From contig NIVC01001220.1 of assembly GCA_002269645.1 (NCBI GenBank), forward strand, positions 1 to 26,779: a stretch of DNA of 26,779 nucleotides, written 5' to 3'. Each line of letters starts with the position of its first letter. Within the stretch, counting starts at the first letter, position 1. Below are positions 184-26,779 of this stretch, piece by piece. A model generated the notes under the pieces. It saw nothing but the letters and a program-made list of their open reading frames with translations. It was not told the DNA's origin and did not search any database. This stretch comes from Macrostomum lignano (lineage: Eukaryota). Position numbers and translations under genes: made by a program.

Positions 184-925
184 ATTTTGAAAGTTAAAAG
201 TCTGACAGATTTTTTATGCTTATCTGATAGATCTTACTTTCTTGTTTGCAAAAAGTATTATATTATTAGATTTGGTAAAGGAATAAGAAAGTTGTGGCCA
301 TTTTAGTGACCATTTTTTGCGGATTCTCTTATGGGATATTTGCATTATGGGCTGTGATCATTTTTTCCAAAATATTTGTTTTTTTCGTGGTTGACCAGCA
401 AGAACTTTCGTTTTGTATTACCAATTTTGCTGTTCTTGGTGTCATTTTTTTGCTTTTTTTCTTGCCTTGCTTGCTATGTACAAGGCAAGTCAGTGGTGTC
501 CTTTCTTCTTAAGTTATTTTGCACTAAGTATAGGAAAAATGATAACTGTGTGTGGTCACGGGGGCAATACATATGCTTTTTAAAGCTACAATTTGATTTT
601 ATTGATAAATTATTATAAATTTATTATACTAAATTTAAAAAACATAATAAATTATATTTATTATATTATTATAAATTAAAATTAAATGTATCATAATAAA
701 TAATATATTATAAGTTTATTTATATTATTATAAATATTACAAATATATTATAAACTATTGATAACTGAGACATAAATTATATGTCTCATTATTGATAATG
801 AGACATATTCATACTTATTTGGCACTGAATCACCTGAGTAACTCAGTAAGTCAATCAATATGTTACCATTCCAGCTGCCACTGGAGTAGACTACTGGAGT
901 ACTGACTGACTAAACAATACTATCT

Positions 926-3900
926 ATGGCCACATCCTCCACACCCAAGACCAAGCCCAACCTTCGGCTTCGTGGCAGGTCCAGATCATCCATTCGCCCA
1001 GTCACCAATGGCCAGGTGATTACTCATCTCAAGTCCAGCAGCCAGGCCCATACAGGACTTGACAAGGCCCAGCCGATTCTGAAACTGGTTGGGCTACCTT
1101 CTCACTTGATGGAGTTTGTCTCTGACAATCTGAAGAAGGCACTCCTGAAAAGGATTAAGGATTTAGAGAGAGAAGCCCAAATTCTGCTGAAGAGTCACAC
1201 TCGTGAGGCTGCGTCTGGTGATGGCATCTCGACATATGAGGCCCATTTGGCACGAGAATTCGAACCTCCAGCGGCATTGCAACAGCTGTTGAACCCAATG
1301 GCAATGCCGATTGTGCCTTTGTCAACATCACCAATGCCAATGGCCTCGAACTCACCGACTCCAGCAAGGCTTGACCAATCGAAGCAGTCTGGCATGAGTG
1401 TCTCTGTCGAAGAGAAGATCGGCATCGAGGCAGCCATTGTTGATCTGCGAGTTCACAAGGCCAAAGCCAAAGTTGCGCAGCTGAAGGCCGCCCTGGCCGA
1501 GCAGAAAGCTGAAGTCCGGCGACTGAGGGCTAAGCTAGCCAAGCGGCCTGAAATTCGCGTCTGGAATCAGCGTCTCAGACGGCTACAAGGCAGATACGAC
1601 AAGCTGCGTGCTGAGCATGCCAAGCGGCAGGCCTTTGCATCATCTGCCAGCCGTAGGCGTGACCTGCGCTTGAGGCGTGCCAACAGCCGTAGCAAGTCAA
1701 GTCAGCTCGCCACTGAGAGAGTGAAGGAGCTCAGAGCCGATACCCGCAGTTTGCACGGCCTCATCTGTGAAGCAAACGAGAAGCTTCAACAGCAGAGTGT
1801 GGGCTCCATCATCACCAAGACATCACGTCCGAGTGGAGGACAGCAGTACACGAACCAGGTCATCAGCACCTGTATGCACTTGGTGCTGGACTGCCACGTC
1901 CCTGTGCAGCACGTCAAGCCAGCGATTCGACGCGTCCTCACGGACCTCGTTGGCATCGACGCCGGCAACTTGGCGCTTCCGTCGCGTTCGCAGGTCAGTG
2001 CTTTGAGCTACAGCCTTGGCAGCTGCCTAGCTAAGGCGAGCGCGATGGAGAAGCTGCTGCATCAGGGGGCAAAGGAGGACCGACCAATAACGATCTTGCA
2101 TGATGCTACCAGCAAGAAGGGCCGACACTATGCCGCCTACCAGGTAAACTTGAGTAATGCATTTTCGTGCATATTGACAAATAATTGGACTTAAAGGAAG
2201 GAAATGAATTTAATAATTAATTATTATTATTAATATTCACAAAAAGAGAACTTTTAGTTAATAAGAATGAACTTTTATATTCACAATATGCTTTGTATTA
2301 CATATGCACCATTCATAGGTTGACACTGGGGACAGCCGCCCGATGGCTGTTTCTCTTCGCGAGGTCGAGGGTGGCACCGCGAACATCTACGCCCGCGAAC
2401 TGGACTACTCGGTGGAAGAGCTGGTCGATCTGTTTTGCTCGGTAGTTCTTGCCCACTCGAGCGACGAAGAGAGACGCCGCCTGAAGTGTAATCTACTGGC
2501 ACGCGTCAACTTCCTAATGACTGACCGACACGTGGTCAACAAGTGCCTCAACGTACTGCTCAACGAGATGCGGCAGGAGCTGGCAACCCAGCAAGGCGTG
2601 AACCCACCTCCACCTGTGACTGCACTGTTCTGCGGCATGCATGTGATTGTAAATCTTGCTGCTGCCGCAGAAGCTGCGCTGCGCGAGTGGGAGACTTGCA
2701 TGGCTGCAGAGGCCGTCGGATCTGCTGCCCTCCCTGGCTTCCGCCCGTCCCAAGCTGAATCTGGCACGCAGCGTCTAATCCGCACCGTCTGCAAGGCGTT
2801 CCATGCCCTGGGCAGTGAACAGTGTGGCGTTGCGATTCCGCTTCAAACGTATCTGGAGTCGAAGGGCGCACCGTCCCTTCGTTTGGACGACTTCCGTGGC
2901 AACCGCGCCTACATCACATTTCCCAACGGGGGAAACATTTTCTGGCAGCGAGACCGCCTGTCCGAGTTCCTGGCTGAGTACACCTGCAGCAACCGCCTGC
3001 TGATCGCAGTGCAGGCTGACTTGGCATCTGATTTGCTGCTGAGTGGCTGCCGTGCACTCGGAATTGCTGACGTTCTGCTAATCCGGCCACTGTGGGTGCT
3101 CCTGCGCTGCCGAGACGTGACCCTCACGGACATGAACGAACGCTATGAGCGCGCTTGCAATTGGCTGCGCCAGCTGTCATCGTCCGAGGGCGTTACTGTG
3201 GCCAGCAGCATGATTGGCCCATTTCCCGAACTGGCCCAGACGGTTCTCCGGGACATCCAGCTGCAGGACATCTGGGCGGCGCTGACGTCTGAGCTGACAG
3301 CCTTGGAGAACGAGATTGTCGGCCAGGCTCTGCAGGTAAATATGGGTTTTGAATTATGAATGCGCTGATTAGTCACAAAGTACAGTACAGTATCAATGAA
3401 CATTAACGAATGTATAGATTGTAGCTTTTATACTTTAAAACACCACTTCAGATCATGGCGACACACATGCTTGTGTTGCTAGAGAGAGAGGTGCGTGACC
3501 ACCTGCCTGGGGGCACTCTGCGGCAGCTCACGCCAGAAGTTGCCCAGCTTGTCTCATCTGCGCCTAAGGACAACGTAGCAGTCGAGCGAGGCTTCGGGAT
3601 GCTGGATAAGTGCGTCGCAGACAGGCCCAACATGCGCCCTCTTGCGCGCGAGTCGCTTGTGCTCTTCGGCTATAACTGCACGTCCGAGTGGCTGGCCGAC
3701 AAGACGGAGCGCGAGAAGGACCTCCTTCTTACCAGGGCACGGAAGCTGGTCCCTCAGCTCGAAAAGCGAGGGAAGGAGAGCGCCGACGCCTTGCGCAGCT
3801 GCCGCCAGGAGATTCTCCGCGCCAAGCTAGCTGAAAAGCAGCGCAAGAAGGACTCGAACGCCGAGAGCATCCGATCCATTCTCCGTGTCATCGAGGCCTA

Positions 3901-4808
3901 CGGCGGACTCTGGCCAACCATCTCCAGGATGGACGCTGTGCTGCACCAACTAGCCCCTGACCAGCACGAGAAGGCCATCAAAGCACAGCTGCAACTGCAC
4001 AAAGCGACCAGTACGTGTGGGCAGAAAAATGTGTCTGTTTGCTCACTGCTTAGCATGAAAATTATGTTTCATGTAATATTTTGTAGAGATCCACCTGCCC
4101 AAGGACAAGGCCAGCCTGCTCAACTTCTCCGCGGCTGGTGTCAAGCGCAGTGTGCCTCAACTGCGAAGCCAACTGCGTGAAGTTCTGCAGATAGTGGAAC
4201 TACAGGACCAGCAAAAGGGTGCCGATGCGCCCACCGTGCCTCCGTCCGGCCTCCTGGATGCTCGCGAGCGCAAGGAGCGAGTCCGCACTGCCATTGCTGA
4301 CAGGCTGCAGCGTCGTCAACGGATTCAAGATGCAGGAGCTGTGGCTGCTCAAGCTGGGCCTGGCCTTGGTGGACGAGGCGGCGGTCGCGGACGCGGACGA
4401 GGTCGAGGTCAAGGACGAGGTCGAGGTCAAGGACGAGGTCGAGGTCAAGGAGGAGGACGAGGTCAAGGAGGAGGACGAGGACGAGGACGAGGAAGAAGAC
4501 ACGAGGATGAGGGCGACGCCATTGACGAGACCACCAATCAGCGGACGCTGGCCAACCTCCCCGATCTGGTGAGCAGAAGAATCGAGATGAAGTTCTGCTT
4601 CACAGATGGGGAGGACTGGATACCAGGCCACGTCCTCCAGCGACTGCCATCAACCTGCCAGAGCAGGGACATTCTCAGCCAGGAGTTCAAGGTTGTGTTC
4701 GATGATTTTGAAGGGGAGTACACCTATGACCTCAACAAGGACTACCTGGCTGGCGAATTGAATGTTCTCTCTGATGACGATGACGATTATGATGATGATG
4801 ATGACTAA
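926..4808 (+). CDS. Spliced DDE transposase (~1171 aa); exons 926-2143, 2319-3335, 3452-4010, 4087-4808
   Basis: Four GC-rich ORFs join in frame across three GT-AG introns (phases 0, 0, 1); total 3516 nt = 1171 aa + stop. Motifs: ILHDATSK (D1), LMTDRHVVN (D2), FCGMH (CxxH), FRGNR, KDNVAVERGFGMLD (E; resembles the hAT C-terminal 'SxxxERxFS' motif), N-terminal coiled coil. Junctions read YAAYQ|VDTGDSRPM, QALQ|IMATH and HKAT-K|IHLPKDKASLLNFS. Confidence 0.88.
2144..2318 (+). other. Transposase intron 1 (175 bp)
   Basis: cag|GTAAAC...attcatAG|gtt; AT-rich; phase 0 keeps the frame. Confidence 0.85.
3336..3451 (+). other. Transposase intron 2 (116 bp)
   Basis: cag|GTAAAT...cttcAG|atc; phase 0 keeps the frame. 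Confidence 0.85.
4011..4086 (+). other. Transposase intron 3 (76 bp)
   Basis: cca|GTACGT...tttgtAG|ag; phase 1 joins the 3455 and 4152 ORF frames. Confidence 0.8.
4368..4497 (+). repeat. Coding 18-bp minisatellite (ggacgaggtcgaggtcaa variants) encoding GRGRGQ repeats
   Basis: Tandem units are visible directly; they translate as GRGRGRGQGRGRGQ... in the transposase frame. Confidence 0.9.
4566..4769 (+). other. Spindlin/Ssty-like Tudor module at the transposase C-terminus
   Basis: LVSRRIEMKF..EDWIPGHVLQR..FKVVFDD.EGEYTYDLNKDYLAGELNVL aligns by eye to the Spin/Ssty repeat (VGKxVEHMF..DEWRGMVLAR..[28 protein letters not shown]). Confidence 0.7.
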
Positions 4809-6212: not shown

Positions 6213-6219
6213 CCCAAGG
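6213..6219. repeat. Right target-site duplication CCCAAGG
   Basis: Identical to 161-167. Confidence 0.9.
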
Positions 6220-6630
6220 AGATACCTCTAAGACACCCATTTTGGCTCCCAAGGAGACACCTCTGAGATAACCAAGCATTGGCTTGCCCCCCTCAAGAAA
6301 TTCTTGGATCTGCACAAGACATTGGTGGTATATAAAGATTATAATAAAGCTATAGTATATATGATTATAGTTTATTGCTACAGAGTATGGTATATAACTT
6401 AAGCTAATGGTAAATAAAAAGTCAGTGCTCAAATACAGTTATTAAGTTTATCAATTTTGTTCCAGTTCTAGCTAGAAAGCTATGGTTGGTTTTACTTTTT
6501 TCCTGACATAATAAAAAACTTGTTCTGCGAGTTTAATTTCTTTGAAATGGGTCCTTTATTTTAATTTTTAGACAAAATGCTTGCCTTCCTGATCTAGTAT
6601 TTACTTATTGTCCTTATTTAATGTCCATTC
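6213..6630 (+). repeat. Interspersed repeat copy A, right part
   Basis: Reverse complement of ~13765-14183; near-identical to ~6555, then more diverged. Confidence 0.9.
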
Positions 6631-7335
6631 ATCATTCTCATTTTCTCTATACTATATGTAATTTTTAACCTTGAATTTTGTTCTTTGTAACTAGAAGCAC
6701 TATATTGTGACCTTTTTAAATCATATAAATACTAAATTTGATATTTGATCATGAACTACTTGTAATAAAAAAATATTGCAAATGTATATTTTGTGACCAC
6801 AGGTGTCCATTTATCTATGTCCCTTTGAAATGTTATCATGTTTTTAGTAACTCTATAATTGATTTCAATAGTAGGCCCTAGGTATGTTGTAAAAAGCTTT
6901 TTTTCTTAGTTTTTACTGCTAATGTAATTTCTACAATATGATTTAACTAAATGTCTTAGCTTACAATTTATAGCACAATATATGTACTCATTGACACTTC
7001 CAATTTGTATCAATGAGTTAATTATCCATTCATTGAGGTTTAGTATCAGTGGAAACACAATAGAAAGAAATTTTTTATTATGAAAACATGCCTTTTGTGT
7101 TTTGGGCTTCATATATTAGGCTATTGGTACCTTTTTAGACCATGAAATCTATATAAATTTTGGATTAATCCACAATAGGCTATTTTATTATACACTGCAT
7201 TTTTGAACAATAATAATATAGGCCTAGCATTGCACTTAATATGCAACCATCTAGCCTTTATATGGCACATAAAAATGGGGTGACTAGACAGTAATATGTT
7301 ATGCTGCTACGCCATGCTATGACAATTACTAGTAG

Positions 7336-10094: not shown

Positions 10095-11530
10095 TAATGA
10101 GATAAGAGTGAAAAGGAGAAGGAATAGACTATAAGAAGAGAGGAGAAGCAAGAGGAGGATAAGAGAAAAGATAGAAGACAAGAAGAGAGATGATGGGGTA
10201 AGGATAAGGAGTGAGCAGATAATATTGGAGTAAGAAGCAAGAGGAGGGGAGAGAGAAGAGAGAGGAAAGAGTAGAAGTGAGAAGAGGGAGAGAGAAGATG
10301 GGAGAGATGAGACAGGATCGATGACAGATGAGAGCAGAGAAGAGTGAGAAGAGAGTAGAGATGAGAGATGAAGGAGGAGAGAGCAGAGTGCAGAAAGGCG
10401 AGAGAAGAGAATAGAGGGGAGAGAGTATAGAAGAGAGAAGAGAAGAGGAGTAAGGAAAGAGAGTAATCAGAGGAGGGTAAAGAGAAGAGTACACTGAAGA
10501 TTGGAGAGTACAGATGGCAGAAAAGAGAGGGGATGAGAGTGAACACGATATCTGAGAGGAGAGAGGAGAGAGGAGTCAGATGAGGGGAAAGAGAAGAGTA
10601 CAGAGGAGAGAGGTGAGAACATATGAGTATACGAGAGTAAAGATGACAGATGAGAGAGGGAAGATAAGACTAAGAGAGCAAAGACGAGAGTGAACACACG
10701 GGAGATGGGAAAGTAGAGAGAAAAGAGGGTAGATAAGAAATAAGAGATGAGAGATGAAAGGTGAGACAAAGGGAGAGAGAGAGAGAAGTGAGTGAGGAAA
10801 GAGGAGGGGAGGGGAGAGAATCGAGAGGACAGGGGAAAGAGGGGAAAGGATGAGAGAGGGGTGAGGAGAGAGAGGGAGAGATAGAGGTAGAGAGCATGCA
10901 GAGAGAAATGAGAAGAGATAAGAGAGAAAATATAAAAGAAGAGAAAGGTGAGATAGATAAGAGAGCAAAGACAAGAGAGGAGAGGTGAAGGAAGAGACGA
11001 TAGAAGAGAGGAGAGAGAGACGAGAGAGTACAGAGTACAGAGGAGGGAGGAGAGGAGAAAGGAGAGAGGAGAAGTGTTCGGAGAGGGTAGAGTAAGGAGT
11101 GAGAAGAGGGGAGAGGGAAGAGAGAATAGAGAGTAGAGAGCAGAGAGAAGATAGTAGAGAGCAAAGAGAAGATAGTAGAGAGCAGAGAGAAGATAGTGCA
11201 GATCGAGCAGAGGGAAAATAGAGTAGAGAGCAGAGAGAAGAGAGAGTAGAGAGCAGAGAGAAAATAGAGTAGAGAGGAGAGAGTAGAGAGCAGAGAGAAG
11301 ATAGAATATAGAGCAGAGAGAAATGGGAAGAGATAAAACAGGAGAAAGGGAGAGATAAGAGAGCAGAGACGAGAGAGGAGAGGAGAGGAGAGAAAATAAT
11401 AAGAGGGAATAGACGAGAGAAGAGGGGATAGAAGAGAGAGAGAAGAGACCATAGACCAGAGAAGAGAGAAAACAGAAGAGAAGGTAGAGATAGAAGTTTC
11501 TAAGGATCCAACTTCAAAGGGACACAAGGA
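10095..11530 (+). repeat. Polypurine (AG-rich) low-complexity tract with degenerate agagagcagagagaagatagt units
   Basis: Overwhelmingly A/G on the + strand for ~1.4 kb. Confidence 0.95.
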
Positions 11531-13764: not shown

Positions 13765-14343
13765 TGAGTGGACATTAAATAAGGACAATAAATAGACACT
13801 AGATCAGGAAGGCAAGCATTTTGTCTAAAAAAAAATATCAAGGACCCATTTCAAAGAAATTAAACTTGCAGAACAAGTTTTTTATTATGTCAGGAAAAAA
13901 GTAAAACCAACCATAGCTTTCTAGCTAGAACTGGAACAAAATTGATAAACTTAATAACTGTATTTGAGCACTGACTTTTTATTTACCATTAGCTTAAGTT
14001 ATATACCATACTCTGTAGCAATAAACTATAATCATATATACTATAGCTTTATTATAATCTTTATATACCACCAATGTCTTGTGCAGATCCAAGAATTTCT
14101 TGAGGGGGGCAAGCCAATGCTTGGTTATCTCAGAGGTGTCTCCTTGGGAGCCAAAATGGGTGTCTTAGAGGTATCTCCTTGGGAGCCAAGGTGGGTGTCT
14201 GAGTGCAAAAATGGGTGTCTAGGCACCAAAATAGGTGTCTAAGACTAAGTCTAACAGCCAAAATGGGTATTTAGGTTCCAAAGGGAAGATGGCCAAATAG
14301 TTAGTCAGGGGCAAAACAGTACAAGTTTTCTTGCTTCTGAGGG
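13765..14343 (-). repeat. Interspersed repeat copy B (uninterrupted, inverted relative to A; may extend further right)
   Basis: Matches 1-167 + 6220-6630 joined at a single CCCAAGG. Confidence 0.9.
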
Positions 14344-15845: not shown

Positions 15846-16222
15846 TCTTAAAAATATTTTCTATTTGAGGGGAATATCTATTACTTCGCGTGTGTCATAA
15901 GTAATGTCACTGATGTGAAAGCAGACAAACTTGCAATCGCTAATGAAGAAAACTATACCACTCAACAACATAGAATCCCCCAATATCAATCACCCTTTGG
16001 CAGTGCTCATACAGTGTTACATCCAACTTCCGTTACCAACTCAAAGTCTAGGTGAATTATAGTTAGTAATCTCAAGCTTGGTAGCGGGCTCTTGCCATGC
16101 CGATGTTAACATTCATTTCCTTTATATTTGCTCTCCTTATATTAGCTTTAGAACGCAGGGTTAATAGAAGCAGTGTCTATGGCCAATGTGTGTGAAATGA
16201 AATATACTTTATATGCGCATAT

Positions 16223-17085
16223 TGATGTGTTCCTTATTACCCGACTTTCGATAATCAAGGAACAATCACTTCTAGCTCAACAGCTAGGCAACCCAGTAAG
16301 TCAAACGAAGGTATTCAATTACCTTTAATCCGGATTTGAATTTCTTGAGTAGTTCTCGCTAGGAACTTGTCAGTAGATCTCGTAGATCAGGCGCCTTGAT
16401 TCTTCAGTTGCTCTGGTCCTGGTTCCTCTTGTACTTCCGATAAGTTCTTCCGGCCGGTATCTTCCGTCAGGACCAATCAGAGGCCTCGTAGCAACAATGG
16501 GTACCCTGCGCCAAACTGCGGTCTAAATTAAGCCTCCTTCTTCTAGCAGTGCCTCTATGCACTCTAGGTATAGCTCCGGAAACCACTGATAGTCCTCTAA
16601 GATCTATCAGGGGCAGTCCTTCTGGAGACTGCAACCAATGGAGTCTAAACAGACTCAAGAGTCTCAACAGACTCAATTAGACTCAAGTCTCAATAGACTT
16701 GAGCGAGATGTCTCTAACACAACGGGCGCAAATAAGGAAGGCTTACCGCAACAACTCGACCGAGTCTCGATTGACTTGGTAGATCAGGAAGTCCTCCTAA
16801 GGCTTCCTCTTCGGAGCGCTCCTCTTCCGTGGGAGAATGGCTCCGGTACCGCTTCAGATCGCTTGTATTTATAGACAAGTTTTTGATCCAAAATAGTATC
16901 ATGACAATTCACGTGTTGCGCTAAAAGGGGAAAATGGCTCATGGCGTATTATTCTGGTAACATCTTTTTCTGGTAGCGTGATTCATTCAAAGCTTAGGCG
17001 CACATGCGTGTACTTACTTACTTATAGTAGTATTATACGATTATCTTCCTTTTTCCTCCTTTAACGGGAGGTAGAACACTCTACA
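16223..17085 (-). repeat. 3' LTR (863 bp, TG...CA)
   Basis: Matches 25958-26779 with 2 substitutions and 5 single-base indels counted by eye; minus strand starts TGTAG just after the PPT and ends ACATCA. Confidence 0.95.
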
Positions 17086-17088
17086 AAA

Positions 17089-17100
17089 TCTCCCTTTTTT
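17089..17100 (-). promoter_or_regulatory. Polypurine tract AAAAAAGGGAGA
   Basis: 3 nt upstream of the 3' LTR TG on the minus strand. Confidence 0.85.
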
Positions 17101-17265
17101 ACGAAAAAACTCGTCCCGAGTTTTAACAATAAAATTCTGTGGTGATCAGTTAATATAGGAAATAAACAATTGATTTTGTGCGCGTCTAGTGAAGCGAGGG
17201 TTTGGTCAAAACTCTAAAAACTTTTCAGTACATATTGCGGTCAAAACTCGAATATCGCGTAGACA

Positions 17266-17640
17266 TCAAGTGGCATCAGGTTTGATCCGACACCACTTTC
17301 GAAACGTGCAGTCTCGCGGCATACTATTACATAAGGGGCATCCTATAACGCCCCTACTAGCGGTTTGCTTCAAACAGTGCATGCAAATAAAATGTTGGTG
17401 GTTACAATATTGAAACGTGCGCCAAGAATAACAATAGGCACATTGTCGCAAACTATCTCTACAGAGGGGACAATTCTGCCATGGCTGAATATAATGTGAA
17501 TCGCTTAAACATTGTCCGCAAACTTTATGTTCGTTGATGCAAATAGTCGGTGGCTTGACAGCCAAGTCATCAGTTAAACATATCGGGCAGTCATATAGCT
17601 GCTGAGGCTGGGGCGCCTGTTTTGACAGTGCGTTGCCCAT
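17266..17640 (-). CDS. Accessory 124-aa tandem RING-finger protein with an N-myristoylation motif
   Basis: ATG in strong context (attATGG); MGNALSK; RING1 CPIC-x12-C-x3-H-x2-CGQC-x12-CPLC; RING2 CAYC-x8-C-x3-H-x2-CMHC-x11-CPLC. Confidence 0.85.
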   Translation of the reverse strand: MGNALSKQAPQPQQLYDCPICLTDDLAVKPPTICINEHKVCGQCLSDSHYIQPWQNCPLCRDSLRQCAYCYSWRTFQYCNHQHFICMHCLKQTASRGVIGCPLCNSMPRDCTFRKWCRIKPDAT

Positions 17641-17760
17641 AATTGTCGTCAATTTGTCGCTGTCTTTGTGTCGCTCGGATTAGTCGCCTTTTACGACAAG
17701 CTTGCGAAGCTGTAGTGCTATTCTTTATCCCGGTCACTACACGGGGTTGTTCTCTAAACT

Positions 17761-20700
17761 CTAGCGTGGTCGTAGGTTGTAGCCATGTGGCTGGCTCACA
17801 TCTGTCGTTTGAGTCTCCTCGTGCTTCGTCGCGATGTGGCGGTTCGTTGAACGCGTGCGATCAGCGTTGTCTAATGTCGGTAGAAACGTCGCTGTGTCAG
17901 TGTTGATCTTCTTTAGTCGATGAATGTGTACGTAGAACTGGTGCTGATGTGGATCTTGTACATTAGCCAGGCGTGCCGTTGTTGGTGACGTTAGTTGGAC
18001 CACTCGATAGGGTCCTTTGTACTTCTGTGCATGTTTATGCGTCTGCTGTGGCGGGTAGTGTAGGTAGACGATGTCGCCGGCCGTCAGGGTTGTCGATCTC
18101 GCGTCGTTGCCGGTGGTCAGAGCCACCTGGTTGTCAATGTTGTGCTTGGCGATCTTCCATGCGAGGTGTAGTTGCGTGACGAATTTCTGAATGGAAGTCG
18201 GTACTTCCACGTACTGCGATGGTAGCAATTGCTGTGCGAGCAGATTCGGCGGTTGGAAGTCTCGTCCAAACATTAGGAAGAATGGCGTATTGTCCGTTGA
18301 TCGATGAATAGCGCTGTTGTAGGCCATTGTTACAGATTGCAGGTAGATGATCCAGTCTTCCGGCTGTTGGTGCGCGAAATGTGTAATCATCTCGTGCAGG
18401 TTGCGGTGAAACCGTTCAACCATGTTTGCCTTCGGATTGTAGGTCGATGTGTAGATCTGCGTAATGTTGAGAATCCTTACGACTTGCTGAAACAGTTGCG
18501 ATGTAAACTGCGATCCGTTGTCCGATGTGAGGTTCTTCGGCGTGCCGTACTTGCAAATGATTTCGTTGAAGAAACTCATTGCCACTGTCTGAGCTGTGAT
18601 GTCCGGTATCGGTATGGCGATAGCAAACTTCGAGAAGATATCCAAGGCGGTTAGAATGTAGGTGTAGGCGATGCCCTGGAGACAGCTCGGTGGTAGCGGT
18701 CCGGTGATGTCGATGCTTAGACAGTCCATTGTAGTCGACTTCGGAATGGACTGTAGCTGCGGTTTCTGTCGTCGTCCTGTCTTTGATGCAGCACATGAAT
18801 GGCAGTTGTTGCAATACTGCTTGATGTCGCCGTACATAGTTGGCCAAAAGTAGTATTGTTCCACTCTCGCGATGGTCTTTGCTGCCGACAGGTGTCCAGC
18901 GAGTGGGTTGTCGTGTAGCTCGTTGAGAATTGCTTGCCGAAACGAATATGGTATGTAGATCTTGGGTTTATTGTCGCTCATCCAGTAGAGCCGTGACTTA
19001 TTGATTGTTAGGTGTTGTCGTTGCTTGCGTAGGAATTTTCGTTCCATGGGACTGAGTTTGATGTTCTTGTCGTCGTCTTTAACCGCTTGGTAGAAGTTGT
19101 CGCGCTCGGTTTCATCCACCAACTCCTTGATGTTAGGGATTGGATGAATGGCGTTGACTTCATAGGCTCTTGACAGGGCGTCCGCGGCTTTGTTGGTAAT
19201 TCCTGGTTTGTAGACGAGTTTGTAGTTGTAATCCTGGATCTTGAGTGTCATCCTGATGAGTCGGTTGTTGGTCTGTCCTTTTGTAGTTACGACGTAGGTC
19301 AATGGTGCATGATCCGTGCGTACTATCGTCTGTATTGGAGAACCATAGATGTAGTAATGAAACTGTCGCAGGGCGAACAAGACTCCTAGTAGCTCTCGTT
19401 CCGTAGCTGACCACTTTGTCTCATTTGGTTTGAGTGCTCGACTGACGTAAGCAATAGGTCGTTCCTTCTTGTCCTCGGTTTCCTGTAGTAGGACTGCTCC
19501 GAGTCCCGTTCCTGAGGCGTCTGTCTCGATGATGAAGGGCTTGTCGAAGTCCGGATGCTGTAGCAGTGCGTCTGATGTCAGCTGTCGTTTGATTTCGTCG
19601 AAACTTTCCTGTTGTCTCTGTGTCCAGTTGTCTTGCTTCCATTTGTCGAACTTGAGCAGGTCGTACAGTGGCTTTGCTGTCTTTGCGAAGTTAGGTAAGA
19701 ACTTCCTGAAGTATTGCGCAAGTCCAAGGAATGATTGGACCTTCGTTATACTGGTTGGCGTAGGAAACTTCTTCACCTTTTCCACGTTGTCTGGGTCCGG
19801 TGAGATTCCTTTGGCTGTCACCTGATGTCCCAGGTAACGCACGTTGTCTCGGAAGAATTTGCATTTAGTTGGTTGTAGCTTCAGACCTTGGCGTTGAATG
19901 AGCGCTAGGGCCTTCTCCGTAGCTTCGTAGAGTCGCTCGAAATCCTCTCCGTAGGCTAAAATGTCGTCGACATAGTGCAGCAGGTTCGTGCATCCTGCTA
20001 GCATGTATGCTGTTAGTCGACTCATCGTTGCTGGGCTGTTGCTAAGTCCCATCGGCGATCGATTGTACTCGTATACTTGTCCATTGTAGGTTTTGAAAGC
20101 CGTGTACTGTCGTGACTCTTTCTCGATTTCAATTTGCCAAAATCCATGACGTAGGTCGAACACCGTGAACAATTTTGCCGTGTTGAGCTTTGCTAGTAGT
20201 TCGGAGATCTTCGGTAGGCTTTGCTGATCCGTCGGTATGTACTTGTTCAACAGTCTGAAGTCGCATACGAGTCGTCTTTCGTTTGTCTCCTTCTTCTGTA
20301 CCAGTAGGCACGGTGAGGAGTAAGCCGAAATAGCTTTGCTGATGATGCCGTGCTTTAGCATTTTATCGATGATTTCGTCAAAGTGTTGTTGCAGATGCTT
20401 GGCGATCGGGTACGGCTTGCACTGAATTGGTTCCGTGTGCGGCAGAAGTTTGATTTCCTGTTTGATGTCCTTGGCTCGTCCGATGTCGTAATCATGATGG
20501 CAGAAGGCTTCGTTGTACTTCCACAACAGCTGTCGAACTTTCCTCTTTTGCTGTTCCGTAATCGGGCTGTCATCCAAATTGATCTTCTTTTGAAATTCTT
20601 CCTCTGTTAGTCGTGGAGTCGCTTGTTCAATCAGCATAACCGATGCTTGGGTGTTGAGATGACCGATGCACATTCCTTGTCGTAGATGAACCGTTTCTGT

Positions 20701-22281
20701 GTTCGGGTTGAAGATTTGTACTGGCAGTTGCTTATCCTTTGCAACCAGCACTAGTGCCGTAGGCATCATGATTTGATGTTTTGCCGTGACTCTCCTGTGT
20801 GGATCAAATATCATTGCTTCATCTGCCGCGCTGGTCGTTTTCGCTCTGACCCAGCATGCGCTTTCAGGCTGGATAATGACATCTTGCTGCAGAGTTACTT
20901 TCGGTAGTACTCGAATCTGGTTGATCAGCGGTTGCTCCACCGTGTCGATCCTAAACGTTTGCTTGTTGAAGTCGAAGGTCAATGGTAGTTGAAGCTGCTT
21001 GAACGTGTCGATTCCAACGATGACGTCTTGGTTTGGTAGTCTGTCGATGATGTACGTCGGGACCGTCAGCTGTTTATTAGCAATTTTCAAGTCGATATCT
21101 GCTTTTCCTAGGATGTTGAGTGAATGTCCTCCTGCTCCTGCAACTGCGATTGCTGCTGGTCGTACCGCGAGTCGTAGCTTGTTGCATAATTGTTGCGAGA
21201 TGACTGTGATCGAGCTGCCTGAATCCAGTAGTGCTCGACATGGCAAGTTGTTGACAATGACCTGAGCCATTGCTTTGCCAATCTCGGCGTGTAGCGTACA
21301 GACGTAGTTTTCCGGCCATTTTGGCTCGTGCTGTTCTGCTTGATAGTTGGGTGGTTGTATCCTTGGTGCCGTTGGTGTTGTCGGAATCGATGGATATAGC
21401 CGCGTTGCTAGTGTCGGTTGCCCTTGAACCTCACAATGTGCAGTTTCTGTTAGTTCTAAACTGTTGTCGCTTTCCGTTGTCGTTCTTTGCATTATGGCAT
21501 TCACTGTCTTCTTAGCTCTTGGACAAGTTTGACTGAAGCACCGTACGATCGATGAAATGATGAAGATTGCCGTGACAATCCACACAATGCAAGCACCGTA
21601 GAAGATGAATCCTTGATAGAGACTGCCTCTTCCATTGAGCAGCTCCCAGAAGCTATTTGTCCAAAATGATTTGATGGCGCTGTCCATTGAAACAAGGACG
21701 GGAAATCTTCCTGTCCCGGTTCCTTTGTCCTTTCTTGTGAACAGCTGGTGAATCATCTTGCGTTGGGTGATGAACGCTTGCAAGAAGTCGTTGATCGTCC
21801 ATCCTGGTGTTATCTCGTCAAGTTGGATATCGGCGAATGGCGTATACTTCGTTCTGTTGAATCGGATTTTCAAATCCTCCATGTCGTAGTTTTCGTCGAC
21901 GATTACTTCCGGTTCTGTGACGTTTGCTGTCGTTCCAGTTGTTTTGATGACGTGTAGTGCATTGTCCAGTTGATAGTAGTTTACTGCCGTGGTGCAAGGT
22001 CTCGGTATTGCGGTGCCAACGATGATGTTGTGTACCGTGTCCAAGAATCCCTGAATTCGTTTTCCTTCGTAGAACGCTTCAATCCTTGGCTTATCGTAGC
22101 AGGTTGTTGACGTGTTTGACGGCAAGATGTTAAAGTGCTGTATCGGCGTGCACTTGTATATCAACAGATGCTCGTATATTGGAACTGCCAAAACGTTCGT
22201 CATTCCGGTGATTTTACGAAAAGTCATCGTAGGGTTGACATAGTAGTTTTGTCTGGCATAATTTAAGTTGATTGCGTGCAT
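17761..22281 (-). CDS. pol: Env C-terminal half + TM + cytosolic tail fused in frame to protease-RT-RNaseH-integrase (frame open from ~22317)
   Basis: NPTMTFRKITG..CYDKP..GFLD..PC env motifs; TM FIFYGACIVWIVTAIFIISSIV (~21545-21610); LLDSGS protease; YVDD RT; IETDASG RNaseH; HHCC; D..D..E integrase; GPY motif; terminal YNLRPR. Confidence 0.97.
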   Translation of the reverse strand: MHAINLNYARQNYYVNPTMTFRKITGMTNVLAVPIYEHLLIYKCTPIQHFNILPSNTSTTCYDKPRIEAFYEGKRIQGFLDTVHNIIVGTAIPRPCTTAVNYYQLDNALHVIKTTGTTANVTEPEVIVDENYDMEDLKIRFNRTKYTPFADIQLDEITPGWTINDFLQAFITQRKMIHQLFTRKDKGTGTGRFPVLVSMDSAIKSFWTNSFWELLNGRGSLYQGFIFYGACIVWIVTAIFIISSIVRCFSQTCPRAKKTVNAIMQRTTTESDNSLELTETAHCEVQGQPTLATRLYPSIPTTPTAPRIQPPNYQAEQHEPKWPENYVCTLHAEIGKAMAQVIVNNLPCRALLDSGSSITVISQQLCNKLRLAVRPAAIAVAGAGGHSLNILGKADIDLKIANKQLTVPTYIIDRLPNQDVIVGIDTFKQLQLPLTFDFNKQTFRIDTVEQPLINQIRVLPKVTLQQDVIIQPESACWVRAKTTSAADEAMIFDPHRRVTAKHQIMMPTALVLVAKDKQLPVQIFNPNTETVHLRQGMCIGHLNTQASVMLIEQATPRLTEEEFQKKINLDDSPITEQQKRKVRQLLWKYNEAFCHHDYDIGRAKDIKQEIKLLPHTEPIQCKPYPIAKHLQQHFDEIIDKMLKHGIISKAISAYSSPCLLVQKKETNERRLVCDFRLLNKYIPTDQQSLPKISELLAKLNTAKLFTVFDLRHGFWQIEIEKESRQYTAFKTYNGQVYEYNRSPMGLSNSPATMSRLTAYMLAGCTNLLHYVDDILAYGEDFERLYEATEKALALIQRQGLKLQPTKCKFFRDNVRYLGHQVTAKGISPDPDNVEKVKKFPTPTSITKVQSFLGLAQYFRKFLPNFAKTAKPLYDLLKFDKWKQDNWTQRQQESFDEIKRQLTSDALLQHPDFDKPFIIETDASGTGLGAVLLQETEDKKERPIAYVSRALKPNETKWSATERELLGVLFALRQFHYYIYGSPIQTIVRTDHAPLTYVVTTKGQTNNRLIRMTLKIQDYNYKLVYKPGITNKAADALSRAYEVNAIHPIPNIKELVDETERDNFYQAVKDDDKNIKLSPMERKFLRKQRQHLTINKSRLYWMSDNKPKIYIPYSFRQAILNELHDNPLAGHLSAAKTIARVEQYYFWPTMYGDIKQYCNNCHSCAASKTGRRQKPQLQSIPKSTTMDCLSIDITGPLPPSCLQGIAYTYILTALDIFSKFAIAIPIPDITAQTVAMSFFNEIICKYGTPKNLTSDNGSQFTSQLFQQVVRILNITQIYTSTYNPKANMVERFHRNLHEMITHFAHQQPEDWIIYLQSVTMAYNSAIHRSTDNTPFFLMFGRDFQPPNLLAQQLLPSQYVEVPTSIQKFVTQLHLAWKIAKHNIDNQVALTTGNDARSTTLTAGDIVYLHYPPQQTHKHAQKYKGPYRVVQLTSPTTARLANVQDPHQHQFYVHIHRLKKINTDTATFLPTLDNADRTRSTNRHIATKHEETQTTDVSQPHGYNLRPR

Positions 22282-22289
22282 TTTGCAAG

Positions 22290-23726
22290 TTAGCTGGACC
22301 AGTGACGATGTAAGTGGTTAAGCTGGTTATGCAGGTTGTGATCCAGCGCCGTGATCTTTGCTGACAGCAGTCGGTTTGACACCAATCGTGGACGTTCTAT
22401 GTCGCGTCGTTGTCTCTCTTGTTGCTGATATGTTCCGTTTATGATTGCCAGGAAGGTTTGTTTGTCACCATCCTTCACGTAGACTGGTATTTCTTGCTCC
22501 GAGATGAATAGTGTCTTGTCTGTATCCTTGCATTTCAGTTTTTGCTCGACTGGTTTCTTTTGAAACGTCAGTGCCAAGTCTCCTGACTTTGCCAAAAACG
22601 TATTTGACAGTAGTCCTCCTTCAACTGTGTGATACTTTTGAAGCTTGCAGTCAATTTCCGGCTCAACTTCCCACGCGAAGAAGTATTGTCGTGATTTGTA
22701 CGGTTCCTCATAGTGTGATTGTGCTCTGTGCTCAATCTGCCATCGATAGTCTTGATGATATGTTGGACTCAGTGGTAGACTGTGTAGTTCTTCCTTCCGT
22801 AGAATCGGCGTTGGACACCATCCTTCACTGTATCGACATTCGCTTAGTTGCAGCTGTAACGATTCCATTTTCTCGTACGGATTGTAGTAGAATGGAATAT
22901 TTCTGATCAAGTAGCTGTTGCGTGCCATATATTCTTTCCATTTTCCGAAGAAGTGAATATATCGACCGTTGGCTGAATTCTTTGTTCTGAACAGCTGTGC
23001 GTTGCCGACCTTCTCATCTGGTTCCAGTTCACCATCCTTTGAAAATAGTGTTTGATTCCATTGTAGGCATTCCGCGTGCGACACATGTAGCTCATGTTGT
23101 TTAAATCGGATCCGGTTCCATTGTCCGCGCCAAACTTTTTCCACCAGGTGCTTGTCTCTGAAGCATACTATCCCGTGTTGTCGATGCTTCTTGATGTTAG
23201 CCTTGTAGAGATCGAGTGTAATCTTCTTTGGTTTTGTCTGGTTTGTCTTGAAGTAACTGCATTTGATGTCGGTTGGTATCTTGTAGATCATCGGTTGGAT
23301 ATGCGCATCCGTTGGACAAATCATTGGCTTTTCCGTTGCCGTTGCTTTGGCGACTACTGCTATCAGTAGTATCACGATGATCCAGAATAGCCAGTTTTTC
23401 CACTTCTTGGATTTTGCCGTTGTCCTTGCTGGCATTGGCTGCGATCGCCATTCGTTATCTTCCATGTCCGCATCATATTCTTTCGGTTGTTCCATTGGCT
23501 GATCCAGGCGGAAGGCTTCTGATTCGCTTTGCTTTTTGGTTATTTCATTATCTTCGTCTGCGGCTTCTTCCGATGTTTCCGTTGTTTCACTCCATTGCGT
23601 TTGGTATCTTTTCTCTGTCTTGTAGTCGACCGTTTGAATATAGGCTTCACCATTTCGTTTGTATCGGATCTCGTAGCATTCGTCGCTGTCGGAACTCGGC
23701 TTTTCTTTCACCTGTTCTTTTTCCAT
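22290..23726 (-). CDS. env: Acidic linker + internal signal anchor + N-terminal env ectodomain (frame open from ~23831)
   Basis: KKWKN-WLFWIIVILLIAVVAKATA hydrophobic signal (~23337-23394); Cys-rich ectodomain; N-glycosylation sequons (NQT, NGT); furin-like RQRR at 22404-22415. Confidence 0.8.
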   Translation of the reverse strand: MEKEQVKEKPSSDSDECYEIRYKRNGEAYIQTVDYKTEKRYQTQWSETTETSEEAADEDNEITKKQSESEAFRLDQPMEQPKEYDADMEDNEWRSQPMPARTTAKSKKWKNWLFWIIVILLIAVVAKATATEKPMICPTDAHIQPMIYKIPTDIKCSYFKTNQTKPKKITLDLYKANIKKHRQHGIVCFRDKHLVEKVWRGQWNRIRFKQHELHVSHAECLQWNQTLFSKDGELEPDEKVGNAQLFRTKNSANGRYIHFFGKWKEYMARNSYLIRNIPFYYNPYEKMESLQLQLSECRYSEGWCPTPILRKEELHSLPLSPTYHQDYRWQIEHRAQSHYEEPYKSRQYFFAWEVEPEIDCKLQKYHTVEGGLLSNTFLAKSGDLALTFQKKPVEQKLKCKDTDKTLFISEQEIPVYVKDGDKQTFLAIINGTYQQQERQRRDIERPRLVSNRLLSAKITALDHNLHNQLNHLHRHWSS

Positions 23727-23773
23727 TTCTTCATCTTTCCATTGTATTTCGTAGCCTTGATCGCTGTCGGAAC

Positions 23774-24382
23774 TTAGATTCTCCGCTCTCGTTCTTCCTG
23801 CATTCCTCTTTCGGCTTGGTAGTCGTTCGTGTCATCACGCACCTCGCAGTCGTGGTCGTTGCCGTAACTTCTACATTCTTCTTCTTCTTTCATTTCTTTG
23901 TCTTTCATGCTCGTTTTGTCGTCATCCACTGTTGTCGATTCATAGTTGTTTTCTTCGCCGGTTTTCATCTTTTCTTCGTTGCCGATGTCGCTCTCCGCCT
24001 CCTCCCTTGTCTTGTGATTTACTTTCTTCCTGTTTTCTCTGCTGTCTCCGGTGGTCTCTTTTAATTTGATCATTTCGGTTTCATTCGTCTCTTCTGTGTT
24101 GTCAGTGTTGTCCTCGTGCGTCGTCTTCTTTTCGATCAAGCTGATGTCAAGTTCCGGGACTGTGAAGTCCATTTCCAAGTCGTCAATTGTGAACACTTGC
24201 TGTTCTTGCTGTTCATTTTCCGGTGTGTACGTGATGGCATTCGCGTATCGTGGCATTGCTTGCGTCGGCTGTCTTTGTGTATCTGACGTTGCGTGGCCTG
24301 TAGCCATTACTTCTGAAGCGGCCTTCGTTTCCGAAGCGGCCATCATTTCCGGAGCGGTCATTATTTCCGAAGCGTCTATCAT
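23774..24382 (-). CDS. Acidic low-complexity linker; probable frameshifted continuation of gag (from ~24260)
   Basis: YANAITYTPE followed by E/D/T/K-rich sequence; overlaps the gag end in the +1 frame. Confidence 0.55.
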   Translation of the reverse strand: MIDASEIMTAPEMMAASETKAASEVMATGHATSDTQRQPTQAMPRYANAITYTPENEQQEQQVFTIDDLEMDFTVPELDISLIEKKTTHEDNTDNTEETNETEMIKLKETTGDSRENRKKVNHKTREEAESDIGNEEKMKTGEENNYESTTVDDDKTSMKDKEMKEEEECRSYGNDHDCEVRDDTNDYQAERGMQEERERRI

Positions 24383-25244
24383 TTCCGAAGCGTCTCATTC
24401 CTTGTTGTTGGCGATTTTGATAGTGCTGCCATGGTTTCTGCGGCTTCTGATTGTTGAATATCTGTCGCGGCTTGTCGTATCTTGTTGACCAATGAGGACA
24501 ATTAATCTGATAATGTCCTTCTTGTCCGCAGTAGTAACATCTGGCTGAGGCTTGTTCATTTCGTCTTTTTTGTTCGGCGATAGCAGCTGTCTGGTGCTGC
24601 ATTAACTTGTTTAGTTGCTGCGTCAGTTTCTGCACTTCATTGTTGCCTGTCGTCATTAATGGGGCACTGGCTTCCCATTGCATTCCGCAACGCAAAAGGT
24701 CTTCTTCGGTTTCGATATTTTCACGCAAAAGTCTATCCCGAAGTGACGGCTGTGCGTTGTTTATTACGTGCAGGATGAGGTTTTGTTCACGATCCATCAA
24801 TCGTTGTCTTTCTCTGGCGGCCAATTCTGCCGCTCCCAGTGGTGGTTGGTCCGCAGCTTGCAGCGGTGGCTGATGCAGTGCCTTAATTATCTGGCGGATA
24901 TCGTCCACAAAGGCGAGGAAGGATTCTGTTGCTTGCATCCTTCTGTTATGCAACTTGTGCAGCAGCACTGATCTGTTTGTGCCGCAACGGTTGAAATGCG
25001 CGCGCAGTTGAATGATTAGTGCTGGATAATTTTGCTGTGTTGCCGCATCCAGCTTGCCGTAAATTTCTCGCGCAGTACCTTGGAGAAGAGGTGGCAGCAG
25101 CTGTGCCTTCTCTGGATTTTGTAGGTTGTATTCCCTACATACCAGGTCAAAATGGTCGACAAATGTGTTAAAATCTTTCTCCATCGAGAAAGTACCGACC
25201 GTTTCTTTGATGTCTCTGTGTACCGTTGGATTGCGCCGCGCCAT
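24213..25244 (-). CDS. gag: Gag (capsid-like region + one CCHC zinc knuckle + RFGND repeats)
   Basis: FNTFVDHFDLVC...LLPPLLQGTAREIY capsid-like segment; CYYCGQEGHYQINC = CX2CX4HX4C; first ATG after in-frame stops. Confidence 0.9.
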   Translation of the reverse strand: MARRNPTVHRDIKETVGTFSMEKDFNTFVDHFDLVCREYNLQNPEKAQLLPPLLQGTAREIYGKLDAATQQNYPALIIQLRAHFNRCGTNRSVLLHKLHNRRMQATESFLAFVDDIRQIIKALHQPPLQAADQPPLGAAELAARERQRLMDREQNLILHVINNAQPSLRDRLLRENIETEEDLLRCGMQWEASAPLMTTGNNEVQKLTQQLNKLMQHQTAAIAEQKRRNEQASARCYYCGQEGHYQINCPHWSTRYDKPRQIFNNQKPQKPWQHYQNRQQQGMRRFGNDRRFGNNDRSGNDGRFGNEGRFRSNGYRPRNVRYTKTADASNATIRECHHVHTGK

Positions 25245-25941
25245 GTTGTTGATAGGGTAGAACGGTAGTTCAAGATCTGGATCGATTTGTAACGGATCGT
25301 CCAGTGTGGTGTTTGCCTCGGAATAAACCTCGACTGTAACGAATTGCCTTGTGGTGTCGATTTGTTATTCGCTGGCCTCGGATGCGGTGTGGCTTGCTGC
25401 CACTGGTTGTCCTCAAATGAACTTGTTCTGTTCGCTTGCTGATTTCGCACTTATGCGGCGTCCCGCAAAGTGTATCTTCAAGTTGAAGTGGACTTGTCTT
25501 CTTGCTTTGCAAAGTCTTTCTTCTCTTCTTTGACTCTCTCTCTTTTGTCAATTAACTCTGCTCTCCACGAAGTTTCAATTAATTTCGGTTTTGTTTTAGT
25601 TTTTGTGCCGGCAAAATGTTTCAGTTATTTTTTGTTTGTTTTGCGTCGACGATTCTTTTTATTTTTGGTTTGTTTTCAGTGTACCGACGAAGTTAATTTC
25701 GGTTTTGTTTTAAACTCACACTTGCTCGAGCTCGTCAAAACAAAATTTTAACACGCGTGCTCAAACTGTACTCAAATTTGACAGGTGCTCAAACCTGTAC
25801 ACCAAATTTTACTCGAGTTTCAAAACGTAACGGACTTAAAAAGTGTTAACTCTAACACGTGCGCGCAAAATTAATGAAGTCGCTCTGTCGTCACTTTACA
25901 ATAGCTTCCAGGCTATTGCTCAAGTTTGAGTAGTGCCGAGA

Positions 25942-25955
25942 GGGCGAGATCACCA
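25942..25955 (-). promoter_or_regulatory. Primer-binding site TGGTGATCTCGCCC (possibly tRNA-Val)
   Basis: TGG 2 nt downstream of the 5' LTR; complementary to a tRNA 3' end ...GGGCGAGAUCACCA. Confidence 0.8.
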
Positions 25956-25957
25956 AT

Positions 25958-26779
25958 TGATGTGTTCCTTATTACCCGACTTTCGATAATCAAGGAACAA
26001 TCACTTCTAGCTCAACAGCTAGGCAACCCAGTAAGTCAAACGAAGGTATTCAATTACCTTTAATCCGGATTTGAATTTCTTGAGTAGTTCTCGCTAGGAA
26101 CTTGTCAGTAGATCTCGTAGATCAGGCGCCTTGATTCTTCAGTTGCTCTGGTCCTGGTTCCTCTTGTACTTCCGAAAGTTCTTCCGGCCGGTATCTTCCG
26201 TCAGGACCAATCAGAGGCCTCGTAGCAACAATGGGTACCCTGCGCCAAACTGCGGTCTAAATTAAGCCTCCTTCTTCTAGCAGTGCCTCTATGCACTCTA
26301 GGTATAGCTCCGGAAACCACTGATAGTCCTCTAAGATCTATCAGGGGCAGTCCTTCTGGAGACTGCAACCAATGAGTCTAAACAGACTCAAGAGTCTCAA
26401 CAGACTCAATTAGACTCAAGTCTCAATAGACTTGAGCGAGACGTCTCTAACACAACGGCGCAAATAAGGAAGGCTTACCGCAACAACTCGACCGAGTCTC
26501 GATTGACTTGGTATATCAGGAAGTCCTCCTAAGGCTTCCTCTTCGGAGCGCTCCTCTTCCGTGGGGAGAATGGCTCCGGTACCGCTTCAGATCGCTTGTA
26601 TTTATAGACAAGTTTTTGATCCAAAATAGTATCATGACAATTCACGTGTTGCGCTAAAAGGGGAAAATGGCTCATGGCGTATTATTCTGGTAACATCTTT
26701 TCTGGTAGCGTGATTCATTCAAAGCTTAGGCGCACATGCGTGTACTTACTTACTTATAGTAGTATTATACGATTATCTT
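25958..26779 (-). repeat. 5' LTR (about 38 bp missing beyond the window)
   Basis: Copy of 16223-17047; followed on the minus strand by AT and the PBS. Confidence 0.95.
26599..26606 (-). promoter_or_regulatory. Putative LTR TATA box TATAAATA (3' LTR copy at 16866-16873)
   Basis: Consensus match in the U3-like part of both LTRs. Confidence 0.5.

Follow-up and report, generated by a model that had tools for sequence, protein, structure and literature searches.

The 26,779-nt stretch of Macrostomum lignano DNA analyzed here (hereafter, the window) contains a Ty3/gypsy LTR element on the minus strand, in which 19 residues located between the membrane anchor of Env and the protease comprise three short motifs: LYPSI of the ALIX type, PTAP of the TSG101 type and PPNY of the NEDD4-WW type. 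As judged from the sequence, these residues probably represent ESCRT-recruiting late-domain motifs for particle release, carried by a membrane-anchored Env-Pol chain; we assign this reading a probability of about 0.6. Within the literature searched, the placement of the motifs on the Env tail is new, while the Gag-Env-Pol layout of the element is known.

Organization of the Element

The element encodes gag, a linker, a first membrane segment (TM1), Env, a second membrane segment (TM2), a tail, pol, and a RING ORF between two LTRs (Table 1). The LTRs differ by two mismatches and five gaps, and a primer-binding-site-like TGG is found immediately inside the 5' LTR; no tRNA genes were found in the 26,779-nt window. 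The LTR termini do not follow the TG...CA pattern: on the element strand the LTRs start with AAG and end with CAAT.

Table 1. Features of the Gag-Env-Pol element and of the motif cluster in its Env tail.
Feature	Position	Strand	Evidence and remarks
5' LTR	25956–26779	-	828 nt, 99.2% identical to 3' LTR; contig ends at the outer edge of the LTR
gag	24213–25364	-	First Met at 25244; CCHC knuckle 24498–24539; zf-CCHC E 1.5e-4; weak DUF1759
Acidic Gag–TM1 linker, predicted cytosolic	23394–24280	-	ORFs; spread over several frames in the window's copy
TM1, signal-anchor-like internal segment with basic N-side	23343–23393	-	Hydropathy and sequence context; topology and signal-peptidase cleavage inferred
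Env ectodomain, putative class III (herpesvirus gB-like) fusogen	21613–23342	-	Foldseek on a low-confidence model; weak PF24664
TM2, membrane anchor of Env	21556–21612	-	Hydropathy 2.4
Predicted cytosolic tail of Env, leading into the protease; fast-evolving, about 85 aa	21298–21555	-	Comparison of copies and lineages
LYPSI, ALIX-type YPx(L/I)	21385–21399	-	Translation, conservation, relatives
PTAP, TSG101-type	21364–21375	-	Translation, conservation
PPNY, NEDD4-WW-type PPxY	21343–21354	-	Translation; copies have N, T, or I as x
pol (protease, RT, RNase H, integrase; Ty3/gypsy order)	17761–21297	-	Pfam Asp_protease_2, RVT_1, RT_RNaseH, Integrase_H2C2, rve
Small RING ORF downstream of pol	17266–17640	-	ORF list, Pfam, comparison across families
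3' LTR	16221–17047	-	LTR identity; polypurine tract just ahead of it

The pol region is in frame with the Env tail, both belonging to a single 1518-aa frame (17761–22317). Three frameshifts (near 24275, 23790, and 22310) break the window's copy and separate the tail frame from the gag start; this copy is therefore probably not a producer of the tail. Forty genomic matches were listed for a 2-kb probe, with identities of 90–100%, and 17 of these 40, counting the window's own copy, were at least 98% identical. Many genomic copies encode Gag-Env-Pol as one open frame of about 2,460–2,540 aa, and in the genomic copies examined env stays joined to the tail. A Logan protein of another family has Gag, TM1, and Env on one chain, and many of 150 representative relatives (the best 150 of 5,241 proteins) continue from Env through TM2 into the protease. 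At one genomic location (G000:C2447:186799-198536) two copies of the element are spaced by 9,729 nt, about the length of one element minus one LTR, and probably form a tandem with a common LTR.

Gag-Env-Pol elements with an HSV/gB Env have been described in Nematoda, Bryozoa, and Platyhelminthes (Chary and Hayashi, PMC13524379), where the non-canonical nematode ERVs of Sacco et al. (2022) are also cited. The architecture is thus already known, and the window's family may be present in the tables of this survey. These errantiviruses share with the window's element the Ty3/gypsy pol, the LTRs, a gB-like Env between gag and pol, two membrane segments flanking the ectodomain and many near-identical copies; the window's element differs in having a RING ORF past pol. 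The main text of PMC13524379 contains no mention of late domain, ESCRT, budding, cytoplasmic tail, fused, or single ORF. No report of late domains on the Env tail of Gag-Env-Pol elements was found in the literature searched, mostly without subscription papers.

The RING ORF is kept in families A and B, with 49–57% identity to B. It is about 220 aa long in other copies and shorter in the window's copy. In family A it starts with MGNALS, presumably a myristoylation-like start, which family B lacks. None of 12 candidates was a homologue of this ORF. Its Atlas neighbors are viral RING proteins, among which arenavirus Z comes no higher than rank 17 (score 0.87).

Env Fold and Membrane Topology

The ectodomain model of a natural genomic copy was compared with known structures by Foldseek, and all 34 matches listed were herpesvirus gB. 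The best match had an E-value of 5.7e-16 and a TM score of 0.27 (range 0.24–0.31), with a pLDDT of 49 for the model. The match of Env to PF24664 was weak, the N-terminal half compared by sequence with solved structures yielded nothing below E 0.27, and a word-indexed homologue search with Env gave one match among 1556 candidates. On this low-confidence model, Env is predicted to be a herpesvirus gB-like class III fusogen; Env of foamy viruses is a class I fusogen. The ectodomain is cysteine-rich and contains a furin-type RQRR motif (22404–22415).

Hydropathy analysis predicts two membrane passes, which would place both Gag and the tail with Pol in the cytosol. The location of the motifs in the cytosolic Env tail just upstream of the protease, as proposed in the preliminary description, is supported by the reading frame, the open copies, hydropathy and the gB-like model. 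The tail is fused in frame to Pol, and its cytosolic side is predicted from hydropathy and the position of Pol.

Two other features of the tail are recurrent. Families A and B, whose tails are otherwise divergent, share cysteines just inside TM2 (21500–21555, minus strand), two of which lie past the membrane segment; the cysteines are candidate palmitoylation sites. A Trp-Pro motif shortly ahead of the protease (21298–21324, minus strand) recurs in families A–D and, among relatives (P0003–P0140, from the best 150 of 5,241), in 19 of the 64 tails bounded by a protease motif; it is possibly a processing or protease-regulating element.

The Motif Cluster and Its Conservation

Translation of the minus strand at 21343–21399 gives LYPSIPTTPTAPRIQPPNY, which bears out the motif content and location reported in the preliminary description. 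The cluster follows TM2, and its first motif lies 57 residues ahead of the protease LDSG (21214–21228). Of the three classes that had been claimed, P(T/S)AP and PPxY are matched exactly by PTAP and PPNY; the ALIX-type motif ends in Ile rather than Leu, and is LYPxI, not LYPxL. ALIX-type sites may accept Ile in place of Leu.

When the 88-aa tail was shuffled 200,000 times, all three classes co-occurred in 6 cases; local shuffling in 25-aa blocks gave 5 cases in 100,000. These odds are weak by themselves because the pattern was picked after the sequence had been seen. A 2538-aa open copy has a single P(S/T)AP and a single PPxY in its entire polyprotein, both of them within the 19 residues, as is one of its two YPx(L/I) sites. 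The motif scan of this type of copy revealed neither P(S/T)AP nor PPxY in Gag of the window's family. Gag does contain a YPAL, at aa 113 of the open frame, but this was not counted as a late domain, since it is located inside a folded capsid-like region and is absent from the sister family.

The three-motif cluster is kept at all 30 loci compared (the top 30 of the 40 matches listed; 92–100% identical). Among 20 distinct nucleotide variants of the family, all equal in length to the corresponding stretch of the window and with identity above 70%, none of the ten core motif residues varies in amino acid and six of the ten vary synonymously, while 22 of the 49 tail residues ahead of the cluster vary. 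The difference between the core (0/10 varying) and the remaining tail (29/68) gives a Fisher p of 0.011, a value that is only indicative because the variants are akin to each other and include decayed copies. The changes within the cluster are Leu to Met before YP, Ile to Met in the spacer, and Asn, Thr, or Ile at x of PPxY; the first and the last of these affect free positions of the motifs. These sequence variants indicate that the core motif residues are under purifying selection. Comparison of the motifs with the divergent surrounding tail, suggested earlier as a check, thus came out in favor of the motifs.

In six lineages of the same genome YPxI was found in five, P(S/T)AP in four and a tail PPxY in one. 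Sister lineages with 59% and about 25% identity retain YPxI and P(S/T)AP in altered order and spacing. In family B (59% identity) PTAP precedes IYPKI, the reversed order, in five of six copies, and PNAP and IYPRI are present in copy L061. The family B tail contains no PPxY; the other cytosolic linker, ahead of TM1, carries this motif in all three copies read there (PPPY, PPPY, and PPAY). The tail of family C contains PSAP and IYPTI, that of L082 PSAP and LYPTI, and that of family D only LYPKI, while none of the three motif classes is present in the tail of family E (L073).

Motifs in the Env Tails of Relatives

A profile search (E 0.001) retrieved 5,241 proteins, of which the best 150 were taken. 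From 151 proteins, 56 were dropped (26 without an Env match, 28 without TM2, and 2 with too short a tail), and the 95 remaining tails were cut automatically, 64 of them being bounded by a protease motif; a few of the cuts are visibly wrong. At least one motif is present in 27 of these 95 tails from the best 150 of 5,241, compared with 5.1 after shuffling. By class, the numbers are 10 vs. 0.9 for P(S/T)AP, 13 vs. 2.5 for YPx(L/I), and 10 vs. 1.8 for PPxY, and each real motif is the most frequent among its 12 anagrams. Chance emergence from Pro-rich sequence, the objection raised in the preliminary description, does not account for this enrichment.

Since the search profile took in the tail, the count was repeated for Env only: 65 strong Env scorers, with the four closest removed, gave 19 vs. 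3.6. Shuffling in 15-aa blocks gave 24 vs. 5.5 among 91 tails. Motif density, per 1000 aa, is 3.15 in the tails and 0.33 in both the ectodomains and Pol, about a ten-fold difference. YPx(L/I) sites, ending in either Leu or Ile, number 14 vs. 2.6, and those of the form [LM]YPx(L/I) 6 vs. 0.24. Of 25 motifs, 23 are located within 100 aa of the DSG motif. No enrichment is seen in the same tails for non-proline YxxPhi sites (47 vs. 42.7) or for dileucine signals (6 vs. 10.9). All these counts refer to relatives from the best 150 of 5,241.

Two classes occur together in 6 of the 95 tails and three in none, and 68 tails have no motif of the three classes (best 150 of 5,241). The three-class cluster noted at the outset holds for the window's family and is specific to it; the general feature is the presence of one or two motifs. 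P0002, a rearranged record of the window's family, lacks the cluster. In 44 linkers of relatives ahead of TM1 the motifs are not enriched (1, 1, and 2 vs. 0.3, 1.3, and 0.9), and PPxY at this position in family B is therefore no general pattern.

In a quick Env tree of 89 rows, 28 motif-bearing rows are scattered, requiring 20 changes, at least 11 of which are forced by well-supported branches. Clustering on the tree is slight, as 26 of 500 label shuffles were equally low. This pattern fits repeated gain and loss of motifs and does not give the order of events.

Some relatives have additional features in this region. P0006 (aa 241–250) contains the overlapping PTAPPTY followed by YPKV, resembling the overlapping late domain of Ebola VP40. 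Two protease-like D(S/T)G motifs are present past the Env anchor in P0039, P0047, P0077, P0078, and P0140, and additional hydrophobic segments past the tail in P0041, P0054, P0062, and P0067.

Host Partners

The host encodes partners of the TSG101, ALIX, and NEDD4 types. A TSG101-like UEV domain is found at three genomic places (G000:C629, C1162, and C1163; E 3e-44 to human TSG101). It keeps Tyr68, Asn69, and Met95 and has His for human Tyr63 and Val for human Phe142, these being positions of the PTAP pocket. ALIX V-domain exons gave 12 matches in the host genome (e.g., C3039, C2509, and C1209), and WW domains adjoin HECT exons on the same strand (e.g., C366, C59, and C158).

Other Features of the Window

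A GC-rich region (914–4808, plus strand) contains four ORFs of 426, 346, 251, and 243 aa separated by short AT-rich gaps. No significant Pfam match was obtained for these ORFs; possibly, they represent a transposase-like gene with introns. Long inverted repeats (1–167, 6213–6631, and 13765–14343; 419 nt at 98% and 167 nt at 100%) contain internal subrepeats of 20–35 nt and are likely the ends of non-autonomous DNA transposons. Long Leu/Ser frames read from the minus strand at 10200–11500 are spurious, being produced by a purine-rich (GA) low-complexity tract.

Proposed Role of the Motifs

The late-domain classes and their independence of position are covered in PMC8402826, according to which MLV Gag carries PSAP, LYPAL, and PPPY and in which LYPSL of RSV appears in a reference title. 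Late domains of retroviruses (HIV-1 p6, RSV p2b and LYPSL, EIAV p9, MLV Gag) belong to the same three classes, and three per protein are known in MLV and HERV-K (PMC8402826). Unlike these motifs, located in Gag or matrix, those of the window follow the Env anchor on a Pol-bearing chain, and the YP motif ends in Ile. A precedent for late domains in a membrane protein is NS3 of bluetongue virus, a two-pass viral membrane glycoprotein with PSAP and PPRY that uses TSG101 and NEDD4 for egress; it differs in that NS3 is small and non-structural, serves egress, comes from a dsRNA virus lacking an envelope, and is no fusogen-polymerase fusion (PMC7409164). Foamy virus Env, which is ubiquitinated and has a long N-terminal leader in the cytosol, also participates in budding, but there the functional late domain (PSAP) belongs to Gag, and Env, Gag, and Pol are separate products (PMC3705266). 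Consensus look-alikes can be non-functional, as exemplified by PPPI and YEIL of foamy virus Gag (PMC3705266; PMC8402826).

The product of the element would be one Gag-TM1-Env-TM2-tail-Pol polyprotein, in line with the single frame observed in many copies, and hydropathy predicts that it spans the membrane twice with Gag and tail-Pol in the cytosol. Signal peptidase could cut after TM1, leaving a membrane-tethered Gag and an Env with Pol on its tail. Gag may then assemble beneath the membrane, with Env trimers carrying Pol into the bud. By analogy with retroviral p6, p2b, and p9, the tail motifs would bring TSG101/ESCRT-I, ALIX, and a NEDD4-family ligase to the neck for its scission, after which the protease would trim the tail. 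Because late domains are independent of position (PMC8402826), the putatively disordered linker between TM2 and the protease could do in the fused precursor what p6 does in HIV Gag. This independence, together with the predicted disordered cytosolic linker at the bud membrane and a Gag without P(S/T)AP or PPxY, favors particle release. The terminal Ile of the ALIX-type motif, the motif-free tails of most relatives and of L073, the single YPxI of family D, and the two host UEV substitutions are points against it. The 1:1:1 output of Gag, Env, and Pol would also be unusual for a budding particle.

The main rival to particle release, which we consider rather unlikely, is that the motifs bind ESCRT and NEDD4 as cargo-sorting signals, directing Env-tail-Pol to multivesicular bodies for lysosomal turnover or exosome-like release with no virion budding neck. 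Turnover could lower the amounts of Env and Pol relative to Gag, which a single frame would synthesize equally, or clear the fusogen from the cell surface. The tail of a membrane protein is the usual place of cargo signals, and the conservation and enrichment results fit sorting equally well. Host cargo and adaptors such as HRS and ARRDC1 share the three motif classes, P(T/S)AP being used by host adaptors, so that the sequence does not tell budding from sorting (PMC8402826). The crowding of three redundant classes into 19 residues, however, resembles viral late-domain clusters such as those of MLV and Ebola VP40 (PMC8402826), and motif pairs like the overlapping PTAPPTY of P0006 also look viral. 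Generic endocytic YxxPhi and dileucine signals are at background, and Gag offers no other candidate late domain; both observations argue against sorting.

A chance resemblance to late domains of what is really a proline-rich spacer, a context for protease cleavage, or an endocytosis signal of the AP-2 YxxPhi type is improbable. The tails are rich in Pro and Thr, YPSI fits YxxPhi as well, most relatives are motif-free, and a search profile including the tail could favor similar tails. Nevertheless, the whole, block, and anagram controls do not reproduce the counts, the Env-only subset is still enriched, non-proline YxxPhi is at background, and the core residues appear to be under purifying selection. 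A chance origin is largely refuted by the shuffle and anagram controls and by conservation, and the AP-2 YxxPhi and dileucine readings were rejected, both signals being at background in the tails. Highly improbable is the action of the motifs in a spliced or Env-less Gag-tail-Pol product, in which their place would be behind the nucleocapsid, as with HIV p6. The cluster occupies the final third of the linker; like most motifs of relatives, it is close to the protease. Splicing has a Ty3/gypsy precedent in Cer1, an element with no such Env (PMC10309623). Positive support for such a product was not found, and env is attached to the tail in the genomic copies examined. Contigs from 4 runs (presumed RNA) out of 24 listed were compared with 17060–26779, and none of the 10 joints listed connects gag to the tail, a result that shows no absence of splicing since contigs lose rare forms.

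For env-carrying retrotransposons outside insects, the published survey builds on gene integrity and protein folds. ESCRT-docking motifs under selection on the Env tail would add independent evidence, of a second kind, that such elements may leave cells. The motif-bearing tail suggests a particle-building route for a single Gag-Env-Pol frame, and suggests that late domains are not bound to Gag or matrix. The move of budding signals to the Env tail put forward in the preliminary description would presuppose an origin in Gag, and the infectious particle suggested there is hypothetical. More tentatively, and at somewhat less than even odds, the invertebrate Gag-Env-Pol errantiviruses may form enveloped particles, transmissible from cell to cell, out of one polyprotein spanning the membrane twice. 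The tail of their gB-like spike would both package Pol and recruit ESCRT, in a matrix-free manner unlike that of retroviruses, with late domains gained, lost, and reshuffled on the tail across lineages.
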